Positions 28,371-48,971 of a stretch of DNA of 64,000 nt are shown piece after piece. The stretch is from assembly GCA_047459655.1 (NCBI GenBank), contig JAJREF010000003.1, positions 128,001 through 192,000 on the forward strand. The letters run 5' to 3'. Numbering within the stretch: the first letter of the stretch is position 1; every line of letters starts with the position of its first letter. The notes under the pieces were generated by a model. That model was not told the origin of the DNA. It worked only from the letters and a program-made list of their open reading frames with translations, and did no database searches. Position numbers and translations under genes: made by a program. The stretch is from Rhabdochlamydiaceae bacterium. GTDB lineage: Bacteria > Chlamydiota > Chlamydiia > Chlamydiales > Rhabdochlamydiaceae.

Positions 28371-30774
28371 TTAGTCGATTGTCCAGTCAGCGAGTTTGGA
28401 TGTGACAGCCGCTAAAAGCTTCTGGTGCTCAGCATCGACTGTTTGAAGAGAAATAGTTCTTTCTTGGTCACGGTAGATGAAGCGGAGGGTGGCATTTTTC
28501 CGGTCACGCCCTAGCTTCTCAGCGGTAAATAAGTCGATAAGAGCATAGTGTTCAAGGAAGGGGATTTAGATTTTTCAATTGCCTCGAAGACCTTTGCCAT
28601 GGGCGCGTCATGTTTTAAGGTGAGCGTCCAGTCACGTTCAGAGCCAGGAAAGGAGGGAAGCTTGTGATATTTTTTATCTTTATGTCTGCTTGCCATTAAA
28701 TCTTGCAGGTTGAGCTCGCCAAATACGACTCTGCTATCAAGTCCAAAGTTCTCTAGAATGGAGGGGTGGACTTCTCCAATCACTCCAATCGTTTGTTTCC
28801 CTATTTTAAGATGAGCTTGCCGTCCGGGGTGAAGGGTATGGAAATGCGAGGGTTCAAATGTGGGCTCAGTTAGGTTAAGGCCCTTTAGCATGTTTTGGAC
28901 AATCCCTTTTAAGTCAAAAAAGTCGACATTTTTGGATTTTTCATCCCAATGAAGCGGCCCCTTTTTGCCTGTGAGAATAAGGCCTGCACACGATTGCTCT
29001 CTGAATTGATCTCCTTCTTTAAAATGGATTTTGCCGATCTCAAAAGCAGAAATATCACTGACTTGGTGGTTTGCGTTGTGCTTGATAACTTGGAGTAGTC
29101 CTGGAAGAAGTGATGTTCTTAAAACGGACTGATCGAAAGATCTGGGGTGCAATACGGCAATCGTAGCGTTTTCTGTCAGCCCTTTTTCCATCGTTAGTTT
29201 TGAAAGTGTCGGGCTAATGAGGTCACAGGTGATGCATTCTTGAAGGCTTTCTTGCAAGAGAAGTTTATGTACCTCTTTTTCAAAGGAATAAAGCGGTGTG
29301 TCTAAAAGGGAAGAACTACTATGAAGAGGGGGTTTTTTAGGAAGGTTGTTATACCCAAAGACTTTTGCAACTTCTTCTACAAGATCTACTTCCCTTTGGA
29401 TATCGGTACGGTAGGTTGGAACAGAGACGAGCAGTTCTTCCTCAGAACGCACTTTGATGTGCATCTCTAGGCGCTCTAATAGGGAAGTAATTTCATTGAG
29501 ACTTAAGTGGGTTCCTAAAAGAGCATTGACTCGCGCCACACGACAAGAGACTTCCTTTGGAGGAAACTCTTGCTCTTTTTCATCGATTACACCTTGCACG
29601 ATTTCTCCACCAGCAAGCTCTTGTATAAGAAAGCAGGCTCTATCAAGAGCAAGCAATAATCCATTGGGATCAATCCCTCTTTCAAATCGATAGGAGGAGT
29701 CGCTTTTTAAATCAAGCGCGCGCGCTGTTTTGCGGATAGAGGAAGGGTTAAAGAGCGCCGCTTCAATGACCACATCCGTTGTAGATGTTGTCACAGCCGA
29801 AGATAATCCTCCCATAATGCCTGCGAAGGCAAGTGGTTTTTCTTTGTCGGAAATCATGAGAGCGTAGGGGGGAATAGCACGTTCTTTTTCATCGAGAGTA
29901 GCCATGGAAACGTGCGTGCTTTTAGCGGAAACAATGAGTGTTTTTCCTGCAATTTTAGCTGCATCAAAAATATGGAGAGGTTGTCCTAGCTCCAACATGA
30001 CGAGATTGCTAACATCCACGACATTGTTGATGCTGCGTATCCCGCAGGCTTCTAATTTTCTTACAACCCAGTCAGGAGAAGGTTTTATCTTAATATTTTG
30101 CACAAAACGGAGAGCGTATCTGGGACACATCTCAGGGCTTTCTATAGAAACAGAGATCCTCTTGTTAATCGCGGGGCCTTCTGTTTTTTGGATGCAAAAA
30201 TCAGGGCGCTTAGCTTTTAAATGGAGTGTTGACCCGAGTTCTCTAGCAATGCCCAGAATGCTTAAGCAATGACCTAGGTTGGGAGTCAAGGAGATGTCAA
30301 AAATAGGATCGGAATAAAAAGATGTAAGATCTGATCCAAGCTGCCAATCGGTGGAAAGTTCCATGATTCCATCGTGGTCTTTTGAAAATCCTAACTCAGC
30401 TCCTGAACATAACATTCCTTCAGATTCAACATCGCGGATTTTACTTTTTTTATTTTCCAGGTTTTTTGCTCTTCGTCAGTTAGAGTAGCCCCTACTTTAG
30501 CAAATGCAGTAATGAGGCCTGCTCTGCAGTTAGGAGCTCCGCAGACAACTTGGTATTCTTGTGTTCCATCGGTTACTTGTGCAACTTGTAGTTTGTCGGC
30601 ATTAGGATGGCGGGTGGTGGATAAAACTTGTCCTACAACAACACCCTGGAAAGAAAAAACTTTTTGTTCAATATTTTCAACTTCAATGCCAAGGAGTGTG
30701 AGCGTTTCTGCAATCGCTTGCGGAGAGAGTGTAGTTGGAAGAAATTCTTTCAGCCAAGAGAGGGGGACTTTCAT
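28371..30774 (-). CDS. pheT: Phenylalanine--tRNA ligase beta subunit (frameshifts ~30440, ~28530)
   Basis: MKVPLSWLKEF, HPNADKL, CGAPN, RFERGID, DLVEEVA, LRTSLLPGLL. Confidence 0.95.
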
Positions 30775-33657: not shown

Positions 33658-35103
33658 TTAATGCGTTCTTTGTAGCTTTTCAGGAGGCTCTCCAGATGTA
33701 TTATTTTTAGTGGTATATACATGTATAACACTTTCATGATCGACCAAATGAAGAGTATCTCCTTCAGTTGGCCTGGGGATTTCTATTTCTGTTTGTGTAC
33801 CATTCGTCGATTTGACCCTTAACCAGTAACGGTCTCTAGTAGGGAAGTAAAGGCGAGAGCGAAAAAATCGATCTGTTATTCTTACAACAGATGTTAAGCT
33901 CCTTTCTGTATGTTGAGCGTTACTTGTGTAAAATTGAAACGTGTTTTCATGTTTACCAAAATGTGGGGAGAGATTAACAAAAACAATACCTTGAAATATC
34001 GGATTATTTAAGAGTTCAGAGGCAGATAGACGAGATTCGGGGTATTTTAGCATTTCCAAAAGAAATTTTGCTATTTGGGAAAGCCTTTCCTCAGAAAATT
34101 CAAGGTTGTTTGCTCCTGCTAGCAGCCGTTCGTGTAAATTACCTTCTTCCAAATATACAGATGCCATAGCTTTGTAAGCAGTTTCTATAGCACTTTCGAT
34201 GGCTGGGTCTTGTTTAGCTTCCTTCTTCCAACTTTCCCATGTCTCAAGATTGCCAAAATATTTGTTATATTCATCTTCAATTCTTTCCCATTCTTCTACA
34301 TCAACGGCTCTAAGGGGGGGTTTAAAGCTCACTTCCCCATTCTCAATTTTGAACAGTTCCTTTGCTGGTCCTTGACAAGTTTTTAAAAATATCTCAGAAG
34401 GCATCCCAATAAGCTTGCAAATCTGATGGAGGCGTTGTGCATCTCGGATTAGAGCATGTTCCATTAACCGAGGAGAGCAAGCAGGAAACAGGGGTTCTTT
34501 TAATATAACTTCAAATAAAAGAGCCGCACTACTCCATATGTCTGATTTTGTGCCAACAGGGCTTTTTAGAATAACTTCTGGGGCTCTATATTCTGGAGCT
34601 TGACACATGTTGTAGGGTTCTCCAACTTTGCCTACACTATTAAAATCTATGACTGTTAAATCATCCGATCCTTCTGGCGCTGGCCGAAAGATCAGGTTAT
34701 CTAGCTTTAGATCTCCATGAAAATAATCTCTTTTGTGTAGTGCTTCCAAACAATCTAAAAGCTGACGTGCAATTAATGCCCAATGGTATGAAGAGAGAGT
34801 GTAAGAGGGGTTGTTCAGTAATGTTACAAGGTCTCCACCGGGGATTCTGTCTGTTACAAATCCTCTTTCAAATTCTTTTCTAAACCGAGGGATGTTTGGA
34901 ACTCCAAATGTATTAAATAAATCTAAAAGACGGGCTTCTGTAGAGATAGTGTTGAGGTGTCGAGTGTGGGCTCTTTTAATGGCAACAGGTGATCCTGTTG
35001 TTAAATCTATGGCTCCAAAGACTTCTCCATAGGCTCCCCTTCCAAGCGTGTCAGTTATTTGGTAAGTTGTTCAGATGTCCCTATTTGGCGATGATGGTTC
35101 CAT
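33658..35103 (-). CDS. Eukaryote-like protein kinase (CMGC/DYRK-like); in-frame TGA at codon 11
   Basis: Manual extension gives LGRGAYGEV and VAIK, in frame with HGDLKLDN, IDFN, QAPEYRAPEV, DIWS. AGAGGA RBS precedes the ATG at 35103. Confidence 0.85.
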
Positions 35104-35490: not shown

Positions 35491-36855
35491 CTATTTTACT
35501 GTTACAGGAATTAAAGAAGCAATCGCTTGAGATTGTAAAAAGCGCATGCGGAGCCAGTAAAGGACAAGGCTGCTAAAATGCATGATACTAAGAACTGTCC
35601 AGAAGAGGTCAGCTTGTATAGCGACTTTATTCATCATAAAATACATGAACAAAAAGCCGTTGATCCAGCCTATAAAGCCCATGAAAAGTGAAAATTTAGT
35701 GTCTTTAAAGGCTAGTATGTAGCTGATCGGGAGGTAACCAAAAGTAAAGAATGTAAAAGAGAGCCAAATCCCGGTAAATATTTTTTGAATATTCATGCTG
35801 CCAACGTCGATAGTAGGAAACAACCAATTGAAGGTTACATGAGGAAAGCAAAGCAAGGGAATCCCTACAATAACGATCATGATAGAGGCAAGCAAGGCTC
35901 CTGAGCGTAAAGCTTTACTTAAATAAGAAAACTTTTGAGCGCCAAGGATTTGAGACACGACAGTTGTCTGTGCTTGACAAAGCGAATCTCCTAAAAAGGA
36001 AGAAAAAGAAATAGAGTACCACCGATAGAAAGGCTTAAAAGATAATCGCTGGATTTTCCTGAAGCAAGCCTTGCAATGAATACCCAGCAGATAAAGTTTA
36101 AAATCCGATTCGCAGCTCTTAAAAGGCCTGGCTGAATGCAGTGCCAAAATAACTTGAGCTGAAGCAACCAGCGATGAGAGTCAAATAAGTTGCGATTTTT
36201 TTTGGAAAGAAATGTAATGAGCAAAAAAAGACAGAAGCCCCCTTGTGCAATAAGAGTGCTAAGAACACCACCTGTTAAACCTAGACTAGGGATCCATCCC
36301 CCCATCCAAATATAAGCAAATAAGCAAATAACAGCTTAACAAGTTGTGAAGATATAGTTGCGATTACAATAAGTAGTGTTTTCCCTTGCCCTAAGTAAAA
36401 GCATGATAAGGCTGCACCTAAAGGATATAGAAAATTAATAGCCATTAGAAAACGAGCGTAAGGAACACCCACTCCGCTAAGAGCTGTATCGCGAAAATAC
36501 AAATCACTACAGATCCACCCTATAGGAAAGACGATACACATCGATAGAATAGAAAACCAAATGAACTGCCAAATACCGGGCCCAACAGACTTGTAGTTCT
36601 GTGCTCCAATCCATCTCCCCACGTATACCTGCGCCATCATAGCAAGGGCCACGCAAGGAGCTTGGAATATTTGAGCAACATACGCTGCATTGACGGCAAC
36701 TTCCATTACTTCCTTAGATATCCGAGCAAGAAAAAGCTTTTCGATCAGCAAAAGAAGATAAGTAGAAAAACTCATAAGCAAGACAGAGAAAAAAGAGCCA
36801 ACAACTCCCCCAGCCTCCCTGTCCGACCCATGATTTGTGGCTGCGCTACATCCAT
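35491..36855 (-). CDS. MATE-family efflux transporter/flippase (frameshifted)
   Basis: About 12 hydrophobic segments. VYVGRWIGA, YLGQGKT, LLIFG.GGWIPSLGLTGG...TLIAQ and VSQILGA match MATE repeats. Confidence 0.85.
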
Positions 36856-36857
36856 TC

Positions 36858-37223
36858 TTAGTTTTGGAAAACTTTCGGATGATTAGCGCCTTTAGCACAG
36901 TGCATGATCAAATGCAATACATCATCGATAGATGCACGCGCAAAAGGTCCGCCAGTATTTCCATTTTCATAGTGCCAGCCTTCTGGGCTCAGAGTGATGA
37001 CAAAAGGTCTATGTTCTATGGTTAGATCTGGGCGAAGAAATGTAACGTAGTAGCTCATTACACTTTCTCCAGCTCTTAGCAGATAGAGATACGGGGTTTT
37101 TCTTCCTCTTAATAACTTTTCTGCGGCTAATCCAGATAGGCTTTCATGCCATGCTGGATGATCGGCTATCTCTTGCTCTATAGAGCTCAAGTAGTGGGTC
37201 TGTTCTTTCAATAAAGTAGACAT
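36858..37223 (-). CDS. Stand-alone SH2-domain-like protein, 121 aa
   Basis: AWHESLSGLAAEKLL / YLYLLRAGES / YYVTF / IEHRPF / F...SIDDVL align in order with the SH2 consensus W.HG.ISR..AE.LL / FLVRES / YSLSV / VKH..I / F.SL.EL. AGGAG RBS. Confidence 0.75.
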   Translation of the reverse strand: MSTLLKEQTHYLSSIEQEIADHPAWHESLSGLAAEKLLRGRKTPYLYLLRAGESVMSYYVTFLRPDLTIEHRPFVITLSPEGWHYENGNTGGPFARASIDDVLHLIMHCAKGANHPKVFQN

Positions 37224-37225
37224 AT

Positions 37226-40200
37226 CTAATACTCCTGTTTTTTTTTGTAACAACTTCTTGCTACGCTAAATAGCCCACAAAAAGATCTGTGAAATATATT
37301 CAAATCTTTTCTTACCAGCGCTTGGGAGGGTTGGTAAAAAATGGGGACAACTGGCATCTCTTGAGATAAGATTCCTTCCGCCTGTAATAGGTAGGAAGAT
37401 CGTTGGAAGGGGTTGACTGCATGATCACTTAAATCGAGGAGATGATGAAAAGACGGGTGTTCCCATTTCGCAAAATTAATTTTTTCACTTGCATATTTAA
37501 AAGCATTGAGCGTGTAGATAGGGTCATCAATCCAAGAGCTCCAGTGTACAAGTGCCATCTGAAAATCTCCATCAGAAAGTTTACTAAAAAGTTCTCCCCA
37601 TATTAGAGACTTAAGGTTACACTCAATGCCGAAGTAGTCCTTGAATTGTTGCTTTAAGTTAAGAGCTGTATATTCTCCAATACCCTTTTGGTAGAAAAGC
37701 AAGTTAATCGGTGGAAAAGTTTGCAGAGATAACCCCAATTCCTCTAGCGCCTCATTAAAAAGTAAGCGGGCTTTTTGTACATCATGAGCTGGAAAAAGAA
37801 CGTGGTTATCAATCGAGTGAGCGTGGTTATCAATCGAGTGAGCAGAAAGAAGAGGGGAATAAGCGGGTATCAAAGGGAGAAAAGAATTAGCAATGATCTC
37901 GGCACGGTTAATGGCAAACGCGAAAGCCTGGCGTAACTTTTTATGGGAAAATAAATGGTGCGTCGTATTAAAAACACACCAGTAGACCAAACTATTGGGA
38001 AAAGAAAGAAGAGTGTCGTCTTTTTCTGCAATATACGATGGATGCCAAGATCCAAAAGGGTTGCCAATCCAATCAATCTCTTTTTCTGAAAAGCTTGTAT
38101 GGCTTGTAGAGGAGTTACACAAGTTATAATAATTTGATCCCATGATGTATAGCGAGGATCCCAGTAAAAAGGATTACGTATTAAGTGATATCCTTGACTA
38201 GGATGATTAATTTTTAATTGGAAAGGACCGTTACATGGGTAGTTTTTTTGTGATTGAAAAGGCCACTGGGGGTGTTCTTGATCTATTAGTCTATGTACAG
38301 GAGAGTAAACAGGGTGTGCTATGAGCTGCAGAAAGTGAAGAGTGGGCCGTGCAAGAACAACTTGTAGTGTCCGATCATCAATAACGCGGATTCCTACTTG
38401 ATCCAAAGGGACCCTTCCTTCTTTTGCTTCTTTCGCATTATGAATAGGGTAAAACCAGTAAGCAAAAGAAGTTTTAAAATCAGGCGAAAGGATTTTTTTC
38501 CATGCATATTCAAAATCGTATGCAGAGATAAGCGATCCATCATTCCACTGGGAATGGCGGAGTTTAAATGTGTATTCCAGCAGATTAGGAGAGATGGTAA
38601 TAACTTCTGCAATAGCATTTTCAACGCTACCGTGCTGGTCAAGCCGTGTAAGACCTTCAAAAAGAAGCCTTAATATGTTTCCCGATCCATCATCTCCCCC
38701 GATGCGGGGATCTAGAAATAGCATCAAATGCTCCAGCCCAATCCTTAGAATTTGCTGACCTTTCATTTTTTGATGCCATTTATGGAGCGCTTCTTGCAAT
38801 GCCTGGATGAAAGCGGCCGTTTCTGTCGTTTGAGAGGATAAAAGAGCGCAGTTAAAGAAGAATCTCTCTTCTATATCGATAGTATTGTATACGATTTCCG
38901 GCAAGCGGAAGATCCCATCTCGAAGCACAGCTGAAATGACATCTCTAATAGAAGGATCTTCTCCATAAACACATAAAAAAATCCCTGCATCTTGTCGGTG
39001 AATTTTAAGAGAGTAGGGGCAATCAGAGGAGATCTGTTCAAAGCGGTTTTCAAGAAAATGAGCAAAAAGGGAAAAAAGCACGTGCTCCGGCATGAAAGCC
39101 TGTTTTTCTAAAGGAACTAATCCGTAAAAAAAAGTTTCCATTAGTTCAGGATCACAGTTTGCCAGGTCTGAGAAATTGTCTTTAAAGTGCTGAAAGAGTT
39201 CTTGTTGCTTGAGGAGAATTCCTCCATTATAATCGCGGAATTCACCAATAGCTGTGACTAGTAAGGAGACAACTTTTTTTCTTGCAGCATAGAAATCCAA
39301 AGAACCGTCTGATCTTAGTAAATTATCTGTACGTAGAAGATGGAGACGGAAAACCTGTCCTTCTACAGGGCGATTTTCAAGGTGCTTAACAGTCATTATA
39401 CGTTCAGAGACAAAAGAACAGTCGAAAAAACGCTCTTTGAGTAAAAAGCGATGGAAGGGTGTTACATATACAAGTGCAATGCGAAAAATAATTTCTTCAC
39501 CCGTCTGCTGATCGAGGGTAATGTAAGCTTGGGGAAGGTCTTGAACGGATTGAATTTCTTGGTTAAGCACGAGAATATTCTTATAAATTTCTTCCTCGTT
39601 GAGACCTCTAAAAACACCAGGGGTCAGAGACTCGATACTCTTTTTGATCTTCTTGCCCAAACTAATTTTGAGTAAATTTTGTTCTTGGAAAGAAAAAACA
39701 GAACCATCTTTTTTCTCAATCTCAAGGTAGAAGAGTTTTAGATTTTTATGTTGACCTGTATGGCAATAAGAGCTCTCTTTAACTACTCTGAACTCAGGGA
39801 GATGCTTTTGCAATGAAAGTTTGATGTTTTCTTCATCGAATAATTCATACCTGCCCATCATATTGCATCCAATGAGGCAGCCCCAAACAGGTTTCGAGAA
39901 AAGGGAAATGACAAATGCGTAGGTATCCATCTGATCTCAATGCGGCGAACGTGAGGAGCGAATGTCACTGTACGAAGTAGTTTCTTTCGTAGGAGGTGGA
40001 CCGATATAACAAGGCGAACAAGGTGGGAAACGTTACGATGATCGAGGAACTCTTTTGTTCCAAGTAAATAGAGAAGGAAGAGATCGTTTAAAATGGTGTT
40101 ATCTACAATAGCTGGAAAACGGTCCAACCATTTTTGTATTTTTTTGTAAACAAGACGAAAGCAAGGATGGAAATCGAGCAAGCATGTGTTGCCTGACATC

Positions 40201-40238
40201 TCCTGGAGAAACCCTTCATCTTGTTGTAGTACGATCAT
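37226..40238 (-). CDS. ~1000-aa fusion: unknown N-terminal region plus family-5 solute-binding (OppA-like) domain, no signal peptide (frameshifts ~39900, ~38090)
   Basis: C-half: LDPR...LFEGLTRL...YTFKLR.SQWNDG...AYDFEYAW, NGPF.L, NPFYW, KLRQAFAFAINR, AE.IL..EMPVVP. The N-half is soluble and unrecognised. Confidence 0.8.
37801..37842. repeat. Perfect 21-bp tandem duplication (AHSIDNH x2)
   Basis: CGTGGTTATCAATCGAGTGAG occurs twice in tandem. Confidence 0.9.
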
Positions 40239-40432: not shown

Positions 40433-41312
40433 CTAGCTTTGTACTAGGATGTCTTGAGGAGGATTTGGTGTGGTCGGAATATTATCTGAAGATGTTGTTG
40501 CGGCTGTGGCGTCACTTGAAGGTTTAGCTAGAGCTAATGTTAGTCTCTCACGGATTCCTGGTTCTTGAGCAAGGCTGGACAGCATTTGCACTATTTGAGT
40601 TAAAGATTGAGTGTTTTCACCTGAGGCAGTCACTTGATCTCCCAATCTCCGCGTTTCTTGAGCTATAAGAGCTCTTAATTCTTCGAGTTGTTTGGTTGTT
40701 TCTTCGAGTTGTTTGGTTGTTTCTTTATGCTTTTTCAGAGTTGCTTTGACATCTTCCCAAAGCTCTCTACTCCCATTGACTGCCGCTACAAATGCTTCCA
40801 CTTGGGGGACAAGCGAGCCTAGCTTTTCTGCAGTAGCTTGGGTGTTGTCTGCCGTTCCAGATATCTGCGTTAGTAAAGGTGTGAGTTTTGAAACTAATTC
40901 ATTAAGATCAGCGTTCGTTTTTTCCAAAGCACGATTGGTTTCTTCAAGCGTTTTAAGTTTGATGTTTTCTTGTGCGAGATAGCGAGCATACAAGAGGATA
41001 GTCAATACAAACATCCTAGCAGTTGCTAAAATAATGATTCCGAAAACAAGGCTGTAGACAACGCATGTCACTTGGTAGGCAATCGCTACCCAAAGAGTGG
41101 GGTTTCTGCGCATATCTGCTAAAATACGTGCCCTTAGGGGGAGAGTCTTCATTAGATGGAGCTGCACTTTTAAATTCGAGCACAGGTTGTGCGGCTTGAA
41201 AGACAAGGTTTGTTTTTGTGCGGGTGAGTAATAGCGCGTTATTTAATAAACCCCTTATTAGGGCAGAAGCTTGGCTTGGTGACACAGATCTTAAGTATCC
41301 TAAAGTATCCAT
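40433..41312 (-). CDS. Inc-like protein: long hydrophobic hairpin plus coiled coil (frameshift near N-terminus)
   Basis: ~38-aa hydrophobic stretch followed by heptad repeats; AGGAG RBS before the ATG at 41312; 21-bp tandem repeat at 40679-40720 (TKQLEE x2). Confidence 0.65.
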
Positions 41313-42304: not shown

Positions 42305-42937
42305 TTATTTGGTGATTGTCCAATGAGCAAGGGCTTTTGCAGCAGCAGGTGTGCTAAATAGCGCAAAGCATACCGCAGCAAATCCTGCGCATACAAGAGC
42401 CGTGCAAGCGTATTGTTTTTTCGTGTCTTTATTACTCCAATAAGCTTTGCCTAATAATCCAAGTCCAAGCGCGGCAATACCTGCTACGCCGACAGGCAGA
42501 GAATACTGGGTGCTGAATGCTAATGCTTTGGCTGGTAGAGAGTTTAATTGATTTTGAAGGGAATCCACTTGTGCATTTGATGCGGTGAGTTGTTCTTGGA
42601 GTTTTGTAATTTTGTCGCCTGTTCGTTTCTCTACATCTTCCTTAACGCTGTCATATAAGTCTTGGGCCTTTGTAGTAATCTCATTTAGTACTGTATGTAT
42701 GTTTCTACGCATTTCATCGCATTCAGCTGTTTTTCCTGCTAATGCAGTCGTGAGTTCATCAACACGTCCTGTCAATTGCCTCCATAGGTCTGAGATTTGT
42801 GCAATAAATGCTCCGACTAACTCATTTACTTTCTCTCTAGAAACGAGTTGAGTAGAGGCATCGGGATTTTCTGAGAGTGAAACTTGGTGTGGGAGTCCCT
42901 TGATACCATCTTGAAAATCGGCAATTAATGTATCCAT
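42305..42937 (-). CDS. Coiled-coil protein with two C-terminal hydrophobic segments (Inc-like)
   Basis: AGGAGA RBS; heptad-rich N-terminal region; two transmembrane segments at the C-terminus. Confidence 0.65.
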   Translation of the reverse strand: MDTLIADFQDGIKGLPHQVSLSENPDASTQLVSREKVNELVGAFIAQISDLWRQLTGRVDELTTALAGKTAECDEMRRNIHTVLNEITTKAQDLYDSVKEDVEKRTGDKITKLQEQLTASNAQVDSLQNQLNSLPAKALAFSTQYSLPVGVAGIAALGLGLLGKAYWSNKDTKKQYACTALVCAGFAAVCFALFSTPAAAKALAHWTITK

Positions 42938-43029: not shown

Positions 43030-46000
43030 TTATTTCAATACGCTGCAGGTGATTTTTTCGAGTTCTTGGGGTGTAGTAATTTTTTTAAGAGAATGGGTTT
43101 CTTTGAGAAGCTCTTTGCCCTGGTGCTTTTCTGTAGAAAGGGTGTAAGTGCCGAACTTGAGGAGGGTGTATCGCTTTTGTGAGGCTAAGAGGCGGATGCG
43201 GGCGAGGTGGTAGAGCCAAAGGACAGGGGGAGGGGGCGTCCCGAATCGGTCTTTGAGTTCATCTAAGATGTCATCAATTTCTTGGAGGGTTGAGACTTCT
43301 CCGAGGCGGTGGTAGATTTCAAGGCGGAGGGAGGTTTCCGGAAGGTAGGTGTCAGGGAGGCGGGCGTCATAGGGGAATTCCATTTTAGTCTCATGGAAGG
43401 AGGGGTCTTTGTGGTGCTGAAGAGCTGCCACGGTGCGTTTTAACAGTTTGCAGTAGAGATGGAATCCGATGGAGGCGATGTGGCCTGACTGTTGGATGCC
43501 GAGGATGTCGCCAGCTCCGCGCATTTCTAGATCGCGCAGAGCAATCTTCATGCCACCGCCGTAACCTTGTGACTCTACGAGCGCGTGGAGACGTTTTAAG
43601 GAGTGCTCTGTGAGGGTTTTTCCCTTGGGGGTAAGGAAGTATGTATAGGCAGGTCGATTCCATCTGCCGACTCTGCCACGGAGTTGGTAGAGGTCTGCGA
43701 TGCCAAATTGGTCGGCTCTATCGATGAGGATCGTATTGGCATTCGGGATGTCGATCCCATTTTCAATGATCGTTGTAGAGAGAAGGATATCTGCTTCTCC
43801 TGATTTAAAAGCATGGAATACGGTATCTAGTTCGTCTGCTGACATCTGTCCATGACCTATGACAATTTTGGCTTCCGGCAAGAGTTTTTTCAGATCTTCT
43901 CCTATTTGGTGGATCGATTCGACTCTGTTGTGAATAAAAAACGCTTGTCCATCACGAGATAGTTCTCTGACAAGGGCATTTTGAATGACGCCGGGGTCTC
44001 GTTCTGCAATGATGCTTTTGATGGGAAGGCGATCTTGTGGTGGAGTGCTGATGATGGAGATTTCACGGGCCCCCACAAGAGAGAGGTAAAGCGTACGGGG
44101 TATGGGTGTTGCTGTGAGTGTGATGCAGTCAACACCCGTCTTAAGGGTTTTGAGGTGTTCTTTTGCTCTGACGCCAAAGCGTTGCTCTTCATCAATGATG
44201 ATAAGGCCTAGATTTTGGAAGGAGACATCTTTGCTGATGATTCGATGAGTGCCAACAAGGATATCGACTTTGCCCTCTGCTGTCATCTTAATGGTGTCTT
44301 TGATTTCCTTAGGTGTTTGAAAGCGAGAAAGGACGCGGATAATGAGAGGGTAATTGGTTAGTCTTTCACAAAAAGTTTCAAAGTGTTGGAGGGCAAGTAC
44401 AGTTGTTGGAACAAGGACTGCAACTTGTTTTTTTCCTTCATAGGCAGCTTTAAAGGCTGCTCTTATGGCTACTTCTGTTTTCCCATAGCCAACATCTCCA
44501 CAGATGAGGCGGTCCATTGCCTTAGAAGATTCCATATCTTTTTTAATGGCAGATATGGCTTGGAGTTGATCTTCTGTTTCGACATAGGGGAAATCTGCTT
44601 CGAACTGCTCCATGTCAATGGTGTCGGGGGGGTAAGAAAATCCTCCATGGAGGGTTCTTTCGGCGCTAAGGCGGAGGAGATCTTGAGCATAACCGATGAT
44701 AGCGGTGTGGGCTTTTGCTTTTGTGTTTTGCCAATTTTTTGTTCCCAGCGTATGGAGTGAAGGGATCTCTTCATGCGCTCCAATGTACCTGCTGACAAGG
44801 TAAGATTGCGCAATTGGTACAAAGAGTTTGCTTTTCTCTGCATACTCAAGCACTAGGAATTCTGTTTCGCTACCTGTGTGGTTTTTTTGCTTTTCGATGC
44901 CAAGATATTTCCCAATACCATGTTGAAAATGGACAATCAGATCTCCGGGAATAAGTTCATGGAAGTCAGAGGCTGGCGTGTGGTGGGTAGAGCGCCATTT
45001 TTCCCTCCTCACTTTATAGCGGTGAGTGAACTCAGTCATCGGGATTATCAAGGTGTTGCTGTCTGCAAGCGCAAAGCCAGAGGAGAGGTACCCTCTTTCA
45101 AATAGCGCTCCTTTTGGAAGGGCGATTTTTTCTTGGAGAGATTTTTCTTCCGATTCGGTTGCACAAACAAAGTGTATATCAAGGTTAAGTGTTCGGTTTA
45201 GTGCTCTGTCAGCCTTTAAATGAGGAATTGGATCGCGCGAAAGCTCCCGGGATTGAGTTGTCGAAGAGGGTGGGTGTATTCCGTCAATACTACCTCCCTC
45301 TTCGACAATCTCAATCTCGGGGCTTTGGCGCAGATTCAATCCCTCATTTAAAGGCTGACAGAGCACTAGATTAGGCAGGTAGCCCTGGACGGGAAGGAAG
45401 GGATGTTTCCACCTTTTGGAGGTGATGGTTCTCTTGAAGATCTCAAAGGTAAGGGGTTGGAGAGGGTTTTTACCGGAATAAAAGTCTCTCCCGACTTTTT
45501 CAGAGATTTGGATGTCGGTAAGATCGCTTAAAGGTTCTTTTGTCCAATAGAGGCACTGCTTTTTTTCAGCCATTTTTAAGAGATCCTCAAAGAGGAGAAA
45601 AAACTTGGAGGAGGAGAGTTTTTGTAGGGCAATCGATCTATCTTCAAGCGCGAGTAAGTCATCGAATATGAGTAGGGTATCTTCTGGCATGAATGAAAGG
45701 AGTGTGGAGAGATGGGGCTCTTTTTTTAGAAGTTCTAGTTCTCCTGCAGGTGATAAAAAAGGGAAGAGACTTTGCCTGTCGATTTTTGTCCAATCGGATC
45801 AAAAGTGCGGATCGACTCGAGGGTGTCTCCAAAGAAATCGAGTCTATAAGGATCGGTAGAGGCAAGAGGAAATACGTCGATAATACCGCCGCGCACAGCA
45901 AATTCCCCTTTATCTGCGACAACGGGGCTTCGTTTATACCCGAGGGTGGATAAGAGATCAGGAAGGGAAGAGAAGGGGAGAGTATCTCCTATTTTCCAAG

Positions 46001-46400
46001 TGTGTAAGAGAGGCTTTAGGGTGTTAGGAGAGAGGGTTTTTTGGAGTATGGCTTGTAGCGAGGTGAGCAAAATTGTAGGGGAGTTTGTCGAGAGAAGATG
46101 GTGGAGAATCTGAAACCGTTTTCCTACGATATCGGGGCTGGGGACGATCTCTTCCCCAGGGAGCGTTTCCCACGAGGGAAAATCAGAAACATCTGTGAGC
46201 TCAAAATAAGGGCAGTCGTCTAGAATCTTACTCTCTCGAGATTCTGCCGTGATCAAGAGAACACTTTTTTTGTAGCGCTTGCAATCAACTGGAGAAGGGC
46301 TGCTTTGGGAGCATCCCATAGGCCTTCAATCACAAGAGAGTGTTCTTGTGGGATCAGGGTGCTGAGTTTTTCAAGAGAAGGGCTATTAAATAGCTTGCAC
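43030..46400 (-). CDS. mfd: Transcription-repair coupling factor (5' frameshifts, start approximate; carries an in-frame 56-aa palindromic insertion)
   Basis: [62 protein letters not shown]. Confidence 0.95.
45199..45368. mobile_element. Palindromic MITE/RPE-like element inserted in frame in mfd (family B)
   Basis: 27-bp perfect terminal inverted repeat TAGTGCTCTGTCAGCCTTTAAATGAGG. The whole element folds back on itself, and the flanking TA(G) copies are 168 bp apart. Confidence 0.9.
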
Positions 46401-48971
46401 GAGTTGTTTTGCTTTTTCAAAGGCTTGTTCTATCCCTTCAGGCTGTTTTCCTCCGGCTTGTGCAGAGTCGGCTTTCCCTCCACCTGAGCCTCCGATGAGA
46501 GGAGCTATTTGTTTAATGATTTTTACGGCCTCGATTCCTTTTTTGACAAGATCGGGACTGACTTTTACAAGCAATTGGCAGCGGTCTTGAGCTTTAATCG
46601 CAAGTAAGAGAACAGAGCTCTCTTTTTTATACATGAGATCCTCAGATAGAAGAGGGAGCTCATCTGCATTGGCAGTCACAATGGTGGCAAGAAATGAGAT
46701 AGAGCCTACAGAAACGGTTTTTTGCAAGAGGGTATGAGACATCTCTTTGAGAGCAAGGCGTCTTGCTGCTTTAAACTGTTGGAGGAGCTCTTTGTGTTTT
46801 TCTTGTTCTTCGAGGATTTTTTTCTCTAACTCTTGTTCTTTATGACGGACGAGATCTTCAGCACCTTTGCCTGTGACGGCTTCAATTCTACGAACACCAG
46901 CTGCAATGCTAGATTCTTTGGCAATCCGAAAATAGCCAATAGTGCCTGTTCTTGAGGTGTGCGTACCCCACAGAGTTCTTTGCAAAAGAGATATCGATCA
47001 CGCGGACGGAGGAGCCATACTTGTCTCCGAAAAATTGCTTGATGTCAGGGCGTTTTTGTGCATCTTCATAGGAGAGTTCATAAGTATCGACAGCCACATC
47101 TTCTCTGATTTTTGCATTGACAAGATCTTCAATGTGCTCAATCTCTGCGTGAGAAAGGGGCTTGTGGTGATTAAAGTCAAAACGTAGGCGTCCCCTTTCT
47201 ACAAGCGAGCCTGCTTGTTGGATATGGGAGCCTAAAACAGTGTGGAGTGCCCAATGAAGAAGGTGTGTAGCGGTGTGGTTATTTTGGATTTCTTTCCGTC
47301 TAACGCCTTCTACTTGTGCATGCACGGCAAGTGAAAGTGAAAAGGAGCCTTTGAGGCATTTCCCTTGGTGCAATATGAGGCCTGGGTAGGGCGATGTACA
47401 ATCTAAGACAGCAAAAAGATGGTCTTTAGAGGAAATAGTCCCTGCATCCCCCACTTGTCCCCCTTTTTCTGGATAGAAAGGAGTTTTCTTCAAGATAAGG
47501 GCACCTTCTTCCCCTTCTTTGATGGTATTTACAAAAGATCCACCAACTAGAATTCCTAAAATGGGGGAATCGGCGGCAAGTTCATGGTAGCCTACAAATT
47601 CTGAGAGACCGTGCTGGCTTGCAAACTCTTTGTAGACGTTATCTTTGACTTCTTGGGTGTGCGCAACATGCGCTGCTTTCGAGGTCTGTTTCGCTTTTTC
47701 TTCGAGATGTCGGTAGGATTCTAAATCAACGCGGAGCCCTGTATCTTTTGCAATGAGAACAATTTCTTCTAGAGGAAAGCCATAGGTGTCTTTTAATTTA
47801 AAGGCCTCATCTCCTGAAATCTCTTTTAAAGGGCTTGCATTTGCTTTTTCGATGACATGGCTTAAGATATTGCCCCCACGCTTGAGAGTGCGTAGGAAAG
47901 ATTCTTCTTCGAGGGTAAGGATTTCAGCGATTCTATTTTGAGATGTGCGTAGCTCAGGGTAATCCTCTCCCATCGTTTCTACAAGGCGGGGGAGTACCTC
48001 TGCCATGAAGGGATCTTGGAGGCCGAGCATTTTTCCATAGCGCACAGCTCTACGTAGAAGTTTTCTAAGGACATATCCTCTTTCGATATTGCTTGGTTGC
48101 GCGCCATCTCCAATTGCAAAAGCAAGAGATCTAATATGATCTGCAATCACATGGAAAGCGGGAGACAAAACAGAGTCATTGAGGTTGTAGGTTTTTTCAC
48201 TGACCTCTTCGATCTTTTGAATGAGACTTTTTAAAATATCGGTTTCAAAGACTGAGTTCACGCCCATCTTTAAAGAGACCACGCGCTCAAGGCCTGCGCC
48301 GGTATCGATCGATTGTTTAGGAAGGGGTGTCATTGTTCCTGCGCTATCGCGATTGAACTGCATGAACACGAGATTCCAAAATTCAAAGAAGCGCTCGCCG
48401 GTGGCATCTTCTTTAGGAGAGAGCGCTTTGCCAAAAGCCGCACCTCTATCATAGAGAAGCTCGGAGCAAGGTCCGCAAGGGCCTGTTTCTCCCATGGCCC
48501 AGAAGTTATCTTTTTCTCCTAAGCGCACAATTCTAGCTTCCGGAACAATTCCTTTCCAAATCTCAAAGGCTTCATCATCGGTTTCAAAATCGTGGGCCAA
48601 ATTTTGCCAGGATCAAGTCCAAACACTTCTGTTGCAACTTCCCATGCGTAGGGGATTGCTTCTTTTTTAAAGTAGTCTCCAAAAGAAAAATTGCCGAGCA
48701 TTTCAAAAAAAGTCAGGTGGCGGCTTGTGTGTCCTACGTTATCGAGGTCGTTGTGCTTGCCCCCTACGCGGATGCACTTTTGCGAGGTTGTAGCTTTTTT
48801 ATAATCCCGCTCGCTGCTCCCAAGAAAGACATCCTTGAATTGGTTCATCCCTGCATTGGTAAAGAGTAGAGTGGGGTCGTCATGAGGAACAACCGAAGAT
48901 GAGGGGATAACGGCGTGTCCCTTATCCTTGAAGAACTTTAAAAATTTCCGGCGTATTTCTTGTGAGAGCAT
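46386..48971 (-). CDS. alaS: Alanine--tRNA ligase (frameshifts ~48590, ~46975)
   Basis: [65 protein letters not shown]. Confidence 0.96.

Follow-up and report, generated by a model that had tools for sequence, protein, structure and literature searches.

A gene on the minus strand of the analyzed DNA (64,000 nucleotides of a Rhabdochlamydiaceae bacterium, herein referred to as the window) joins an OppA-type solute-binding domain to a long N-terminal region. The question raised by this locus is what such a binding domain does in a protein without an export signal. The whole fusion gene (37226..40238, minus strand) encodes approximately 997-1004 aa when intact. In the order of translation, it contains three ACT*-like domains with helical motifs followed by the OppA-type domain; these assignments are based on tblastn alignments to the homologs P0002 and P0003, on Pfam, and on an AlphaFold2 model of the N-terminal region of a homolog. 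As assembled, the gene lies in three frames and appears in the ORF list as three overlapping minus-strand ORFs. PF00496 (SBP_bac_5) was found in the second and third of these ORFs, and no Pfam match was found for the N-terminal part. Inside the ORF 39930-37870, the upstream soluble region continues in the same frame into the PF00496 domain, and the junction contains no stop codon, as the original prediction had stated. That prediction had also held the fusion not to be a frameshift artefact. The in-frame junction and the intact homologs agree with this, but two other breaks in the gene had been missed, and the two ACT-like motifs pointed out in it lie in different frames of the assembly, not in one. 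Two further features had been missed: a paralog located behind the gene for an aspartokinase without ACT domains, and the conservation of SH2-like and MATE genes next to the fusion gene.

According to tblastn, the frames of the fusion gene are 40238-~39900, ~39900-38085, and ~38085-37226, and both breaks fall in homopolymers. Run X1, possibly the source sample, provided a short-read contig with one extra T after position 38080, which restores the frame, and with extra bases at both breaks of the MATE gene. The 5' break (near 39890-39900) falls between two contigs and is bridged by none. Frameshifts were found in 14 of the 35 conserved genes tested in this assembly, including genes that, from reading the query ORFs, we take to be rpsA-, accC-, and dnaA-like. 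Because of the homopolymer sites, the repair by the X1 contig, and the splitting of other conserved genes, the breaks in the fusion gene are likely assembly errors. A pseudogene in decay or an assembly artefact as the source of the fusion would agree with the two frameshifts in this gene, the two in the MATE gene, and the unbridged 5' break. Such an origin is, however, extremely improbable: more than 100 homologs carry the intact fusion, the short-read contig fills three of the four breaks, and essential genes are broken likewise. An in-frame duplication of 21 bp near 37800-37842, inside the OppA domain, is probably real, since the X1 contig is gapless there. Elsewhere in the window, pheT-, mfd-, and alaS-like genes (28511-30774, 43030-46319, and 46386-48600, respectively) are each split into two ORFs, which fits an indel-rich assembly.

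In total, 278 proteins were matched in a sequence search with residues 20-400 of the middle ORF. Among the 120 matches listed, most have approximately 990-1040 aa, PF00496, and the same layout. The named ones belong to Chlamydiales, Parachlamydiaceae, Waddliaceae, and Rhabdochlamydiaceae, with a few labelled Verrucomicrobia, and their annotation is peptide-binding protein only. The intact homolog P0002 (997 aa) is 88% identical to the middle piece of the window gene and spans this gene end to end in three frames (tblastn). In a conservation profile of 110 homologs, the first 20 aa are variable, and mean column conservation is 0.68-0.79 for most parts of the N-terminal module and 0.69 for the OppA domain; the OppA domain is about as conserved as the module, and both halves of the fusion are under constraint. 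The fusion is thus real and conserved across many environmental chlamydiae. In a quick tree (68 rows, unrooted), a branch with support 96 separates the 24 unfused proteins from the rest, and the SH2-linked fusions fall inside a group of 34 rows with support 100. The subgroup containing the window's fusion includes five families with short branches, and this may reflect lateral spread.

Several variants and surroundings of the gene were observed as well. Forms of approximately 1,700 aa, with the module followed by two OppA domains, are located beside a free oppA (L023:2537-7594 and L024:3483-8582), and one genome contains three fusion genes within 12 kb (G209, L143). In the Atlas, a 631-aa cluster with a score of 0.90, for which Ca. 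Fermentibacterota is the commonest labelled phylum, may represent relatives outside Chlamydiota. A promoter scan of the locus gave fewer sites than were found in shuffles. Upstream of the fusion gene, on either side of a nucleosidase-like gene, the window encodes two coiled-coil proteins with hydrophobic hairpins (40433-41206 and 42305-42937), which by eye look like proteins of the inclusion-membrane type.

The fold of the N-terminal region was predicted with AlphaFold2 for residues 21-495 of a same-genus homolog (146 rows; pLDDT 89). In this model, the region of approximately 495 aa forms three ββαββα domains with a helical motif before each. Transferred to the minus strand of the window, helical motif 1 (39954..40178; approximately residues 21-95, with model helices 7-73) holds the sequence EFLDHRN. 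Next comes ACT*-like domain a (39625..39953), with a range taken from the model and VIA-align; the 5' frameshift near 39890-39900 falls inside it. Conservation within the module is highest at 39229..39624, which comprises helical motif 2 and ACT*-like domain b; the first strand of domain b starts with LPQAYITLDQQ. The segment 38755..39228 contains helical motif 3 and domain c, the least conserved, whose last helix continues into the OppA domain.

Two Foldseek matches with E below 0.001 were found, both to chains of 7JSR, the large mycobacterial glutamate dehydrogenase (GDH; E 2.6e-5). In VIA-align, the first match was to residues 500-615 of GDH (rmsd 2.8 over 103 residues), with a middling Z of 7.8, and aspartokinase regulatory domains scored lower (3MAH, Z 5.9). 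The Atlas, used as a lead only, gave the clusters GDH_ACT and GDH_HM after three unnamed clusters. The ββαββα arrangement is the ACT* topology of large GDH, for which metabolic sensing has been proposed (available text of PMC8175468). At the level of sequence, the module and large GDH are 8-12% identical. In PDB, the N-terminal region had no sequence match up to an E of 10. Neither Pfam nor NCBIfam assigned the module to a family, and the module profile did not match the N-terminus of the large GDH from this genome (probability 0.5%). Profile comparison also detected no similarity among the four ACT* domains known from the longest form of the module (best probability 3%), so the repeat is visible in models only. 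The large GDH itself (approximately 1,020 aa; G000:C3:204055-207120, L166) is present in all five chlamydial genomes tested. The N-terminal region is thus predicted to consist of three ACT-like domains with helical spacers. An ACT-like character had been proposed from the sequence, and structure prediction with Foldseek bears it out. The proposed link to GlnD was not supported: GlnD is absent among the listed fold matches, the best of which is 7JSR, and both Foldseek and VIA-align, together with the Atlas, favor large NAD-glutamate dehydrogenases, whose segment of ACT* domains and helical motifs would be a closer model for the module.

The OppA-type family-5 solute-binding domain (37226..38754, minus strand) is full length, with a frameshift near 38080-38085. 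It is closest to OppA of B. subtilis (8ARE, E 1e-71) and falls below all NCBIfam cut-offs. According to the available text of a simulation study, Arg413 and Asp419 hold the peptide termini in OppA (PMC6305025), and their equivalents were mapped through the 8ARE alignment and the residue spacing given there. Both are replaced in the window. The motif could be located in 105 of 119 homologs; none of these 105 has Arg at the first position or Asp at the second, the residues being mostly Leu, Ile, or Phe at the former and Trp at the latter. Because these anchors are replaced, the ligand is likely not an ordinary free peptide. As for location, 100 homologs of 985-1010 aa were scanned: their 19-residue Kyte-Doolittle means reach at most 1.73, and none of them has a lipobox in the first 40 aa, by a rough lipobox-type pattern that flagged only some of the free OppA proteins. 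The lack of a hydrophobic stretch and, by this soft test, of a lipobox suggests that the fusion is likely cytoplasmic, in agreement with the earlier claim of a protein without a signal peptide or transmembrane helix.

Many fusions flank a free oppA gene, and unfused modules are located directly behind oppA in G017 and G019. This suggests that the module moved beside oppA and was then fused to it with loss of the signal. The same neighborhoods could mean that the fusion still serves the Opp importer, either by unusual export or as an inner-face receiver or trans-inhibitor of imported peptides. Opp-type permease pairs were found in five of five genomes, and Trp at the Asp419 position is shared with three of the four free chlamydial OppAs with a readable motif (seven examined). 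A role with the importer is nevertheless very unlikely, since the fusion has no export signal and its neighbors in the window clade are SH2-like and MATE genes, not permease genes.

The first of these neighbors encodes an SH2-like protein of 121 aa (36858..37223, minus strand), and its start codon lies 2 nt past the stop of the fusion gene. A profile of the SH2-like proteins matches the p85 SH2 domain (E 6e-6), and nearly all of its 55 matches are SH2 proteins; Pfam SH2 is above the cut-off in one homolog, and the Atlas also gives SH2. At the position that we take to be the FLVR-type Arg, Arg was found in 20 of 28 SH2-like proteins, including that of the window, Ser in seven, and Cys in one. 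The second neighbor is a MATE-family exporter gene (35491..36850, minus strand; start approximate), which lies in three frames as assembled and was assigned to MatE by Pfam and, through its homologs, by NCBIfam. MurJ was rejected as its identity, with MATE models only being given by NCBIfam.

Across the phylum, 63 of 300 genomes contain the SH2-like gene; all 20 matches in a set of 41 genomes lie beside a fusion gene. In the best-scoring 30 of 84 SH2 loci, which come from related genomes, a MATE gene is present within 1.5 kb in 29, a part of the fusion in 29, and both in 28, and this linkage persists through changes of order and strand. In P0032, the fusion and an SH2-like domain form one protein. 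Two or three tandem copies of the SH2-like gene beside one fusion gene were observed in L142, L168, L026, and L137, and one genome has four fusion-SH2-MATE loci (G023, L029-L032). Downstream of the MATE gene, the window also contains an ORF resembling Ser/Thr protein kinases (33658-34749); it is likely unrelated to these three genes, because it is missing there in both same-genus loci.

The RD(Y/F)NGG motif (39220..39237, minus strand) is located at the junction of ACT*-like domain b and helical motif 3. The Tyr of GEFRDYNGG had been suggested as an SH2 docking site, and its conservation was to be checked. In alignment A3, the R, D, N, G, and G are invariant and the aromatic residue is variable: Phe takes the place of Tyr in 22 of the 67 stand-alone paralogs and 11 of the 119 fusion homologs, with single instances of Cys, Ala, or Leu. 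Moreover, the surrounding motif is invariant in paralogs without an SH2 neighbor. Because of the frequent Phe and the conservation in these paralogs, a docking site was rejected, and the Tyr, being often replaced by Phe, is likely structural.

Chlamydiae are intracellular bacteria, and the SH2-like protein, perhaps together with the fusion, could accordingly be a type III secreted effector, with the SH2 domain binding host phosphotyrosine as in Legionella. A missing Sec signal agrees with type III secretion. Variability of the first 20 aa and retention of the SH2 Arg in most of the proteins also count in favor; in the available text on Legionella, eight of ten tested SH2 proteins translocate (PMC6208348). 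This explanation is quite unlikely, however. The exporter and fusion genes remain beside the SH2-like gene through rearrangements, which would not be expected of a free effector; the paralog of the module is a near-core gene in a housekeeping operon, and a 997-aa protein with a stable OppA clamshell would be a poor candidate for a secretion substrate.

Thus, the fusion may be the cytoplasmic sensor of a sensor-adaptor-exporter unit with the SH2-like protein and the MATE exporter, a reading to which we assign a probability of about 0.4. Its firm parts are the existence of the fusion, how well it is conserved, the linkage of the genes, and the changed residues of the pocket. The fold is predicted, and location, ligand binding, contacts, and target are inferred. 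The OppA clamshell would close on an internal peptide-like or other metabolite, and the ACT* array would relay the ligand state by protein contact, the most likely target being the co-encoded MATE exporter with the SH2-like protein as adaptor. Against such a unit count the many fusions that adjoin free oppA genes instead of SH2-like and MATE genes, the loss of the canonical peptide anchors, the absence of the SH2 Arg in 8 of 28 proteins, and the restriction of SH2-like genes to part of the phylum.

A second possible target emerges from the occurrence of the module itself. Of the 300 genomes scored across the phylum (one further genome was unscored), 265 contain it; it was found in none of the 29 genomes of family f20, a family that appears Chlamydiaceae-like, in part from a PRK05925 match. 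The commonest form of the module is an unfused protein of approximately 650 aa, modeled with a fourth ββαββα domain in front; the top Foldseek match of this four-domain paralog is again 7JSR (E 7e-8). In 71 of the 80 best loci, the unfused paralog follows an aspartokinase gene (lysC) for 243-296 aa. The paralog-linked lysC covers the catalytic domain only, with the invariant motifs kept; all 36 such kinases found in 41 genomes have at most 310 aa, and the best NCBIfam score of the chlamydial kinase is to the first 244 positions of the 587-aa PRK07431 model. The f20 lysC genes encode 446-465 aa with a C-terminal region of their own (three of three genomes). Natural fusions of aspartokinase and module were found in two lineages, a clade of four (P0166, P0271, P0272, and P0273) and P0361, whose kinase is joined to exactly the three-domain core of the window's fusion, the first ACT* domain being missing. 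From the position behind lysC and from these fusions, the module is probably a detached regulatory subunit of an ACT-less aspartokinase, and the ACT* array of the OppA fusion was likely duplicated from this subunit. The genetic tie between ACT-fold domains and the kinase holds for the paralog, not for the locus in the window. A further unfused class of approximately 700 aa with an internal insertion (L164:3027-5213, L165:4331-6415; P0165, P0190, P0230, and P0252) is located behind oppA, not lysC, in both loci seen (L164 and L165).

In the main rival to the sensor-exporter unit, the OppA fusion would act on the ACT-less LysC as an alternative subunit that senses a ligand and regulates the kinase, tuning diaminopimelate (DAP) synthesis to recycled cell-wall peptides, with the SH2-like and MATE proteins forming a linked separate step. 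Besides the split kinase, its presence in loci with the paralog, the kinase-module fusions, and the longer lysC of the module-free f20, several observations are in line with this. In six genomes (G015, G143, G200, G201, G292, and G305), lysC has lost the neighbor, and a long ORF alone matches the module; it was confirmed as a fusion in the first two and inferred from its length to be one in the other four. The gene dapA was found in four of five genomes tested and homoserine dehydrogenase in none of the five, so the kinase likely feeds DAP. Import of mDAP peptides by Opp has been proposed for Chlamydia (available text of PMC9928106). We nevertheless consider such a subunit somewhat unlikely. 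In the genome of the window, the unfused four-domain paralog is still located directly behind a kinase-only lysC (G000:C1:536749-539272 in three frames; L002, L003, and L124), in the order rpsA, lysC, paralog, rpe, cofD-like, HAD, efp, and accB. The fusion of the window type also lacks the first ACT* domain. Among draft genomes, the kinase occurs without a module match in G035, the paralog without a lysC match in G003 and G014, and fusions without a lysC match in G026. By hand count, rpe follows the paralog in approximately 52 of the 80 loci, so the adjacency to lysC is partly plain synteny. Finally, control of LysC leaves the tight SH2/MATE linkage unexplained.

Since the unfused paralog is kept behind lysC in this genome, the copy in the window is free for another target, in favor of the sensor-exporter unit. 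Both functions are mutually compatible. In the broadest combination, unlikely as a whole, a bare kinase with a GDH-type four-ACT subunit would constitute a split aspartokinase, and copies of the subunit fused to OppA would be intracellular receptors of cell-wall peptides or metabolites, signaling through a resident SH2 protein to MATE and LysC. If true, this would be an SH2-based signaling circuit inside the bacterium, not the host.

Searches of the main texts of open papers gave no description of the fusion, the paralog, or the chlamydial SH2-like genes; the architecture is real, conserved, and apparently undescribed. The present analysis gives a fold and a testable role to an unannotated gene that is near-core in environmental chlamydiae and was not found in the 29 genomes of the small-genome f20, and it points to an aspartokinase with regulation outsourced to a separate gene.

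The fusion is not a member of the SgrR family, a GlnD, a GDH, or a transport OppA. It shares with the large NAD-glutamate dehydrogenases (mL-GDH180, 7JSR/7A1D) the repeated helical motif and ββαββα ACT* domains, but has no GDH catalytic domain (Pfam), and no PAS domain was seen. GlnD uridylyltransferase carries nucleotidyltransferase and HD domains; on an intact homolog of the fusion, neither was matched by Pfam or NCBIfam. The full-length PF00496 domain is common to OppA and MppA, whereas the fusion has no signal or lipobox, its Arg413 and Asp419 equivalents are replaced, and it remains below the NCBIfam cut-offs. Among aspartokinases, the kinase is regulated by a separate ACT subunit in class II (the β subunit) and by four ACT domains in the cyanobacterial class III (available text of PMC4142519). 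The chlamydial kinase, in contrast, has no ACT domain at all; GDH-type ACT* domains are encoded by a separate partner gene, and copies of this subunit are fused to OppA. With the Legionella effectors, the SH2-like proteins share a bacterial SH2-fold domain in an intracellular bacterium, but they are fixed partners of a sensor gene and an exporter, and their Arg is variable; "chlamyd" does not occur in the main text of PMC6208348. This fixed partnership raises the question of whether a bacterial SH2 domain acts inside the bacterium.

The closest parallel is with SgrR and DsvR, cytoplasmic SBP_bac_5 regulators, of which SgrR controls the efflux pump SetA (available text of 10.64898/2026.04.01.715812). 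An intracellular family-5 binding domain behind an N-terminal output region and a link to an efflux pump are common to these regulators and the fusion. The suggested SgrR-like architecture with a different output domain was supported: the C-terminal SBP_bac_5 domain without an export signal is present, and the N-terminal HTH is absent (PF00496 as the only Pfam match; model). As the fusion has no DNA-binding domain, its mechanism is not that of SgrR. Its output region is a three- or four-fold ACT* array, and its binding domain is closest to true OppA. The fusion would thus represent a second route, besides SgrR, from a periplasmic binding protein to an inner sensor.
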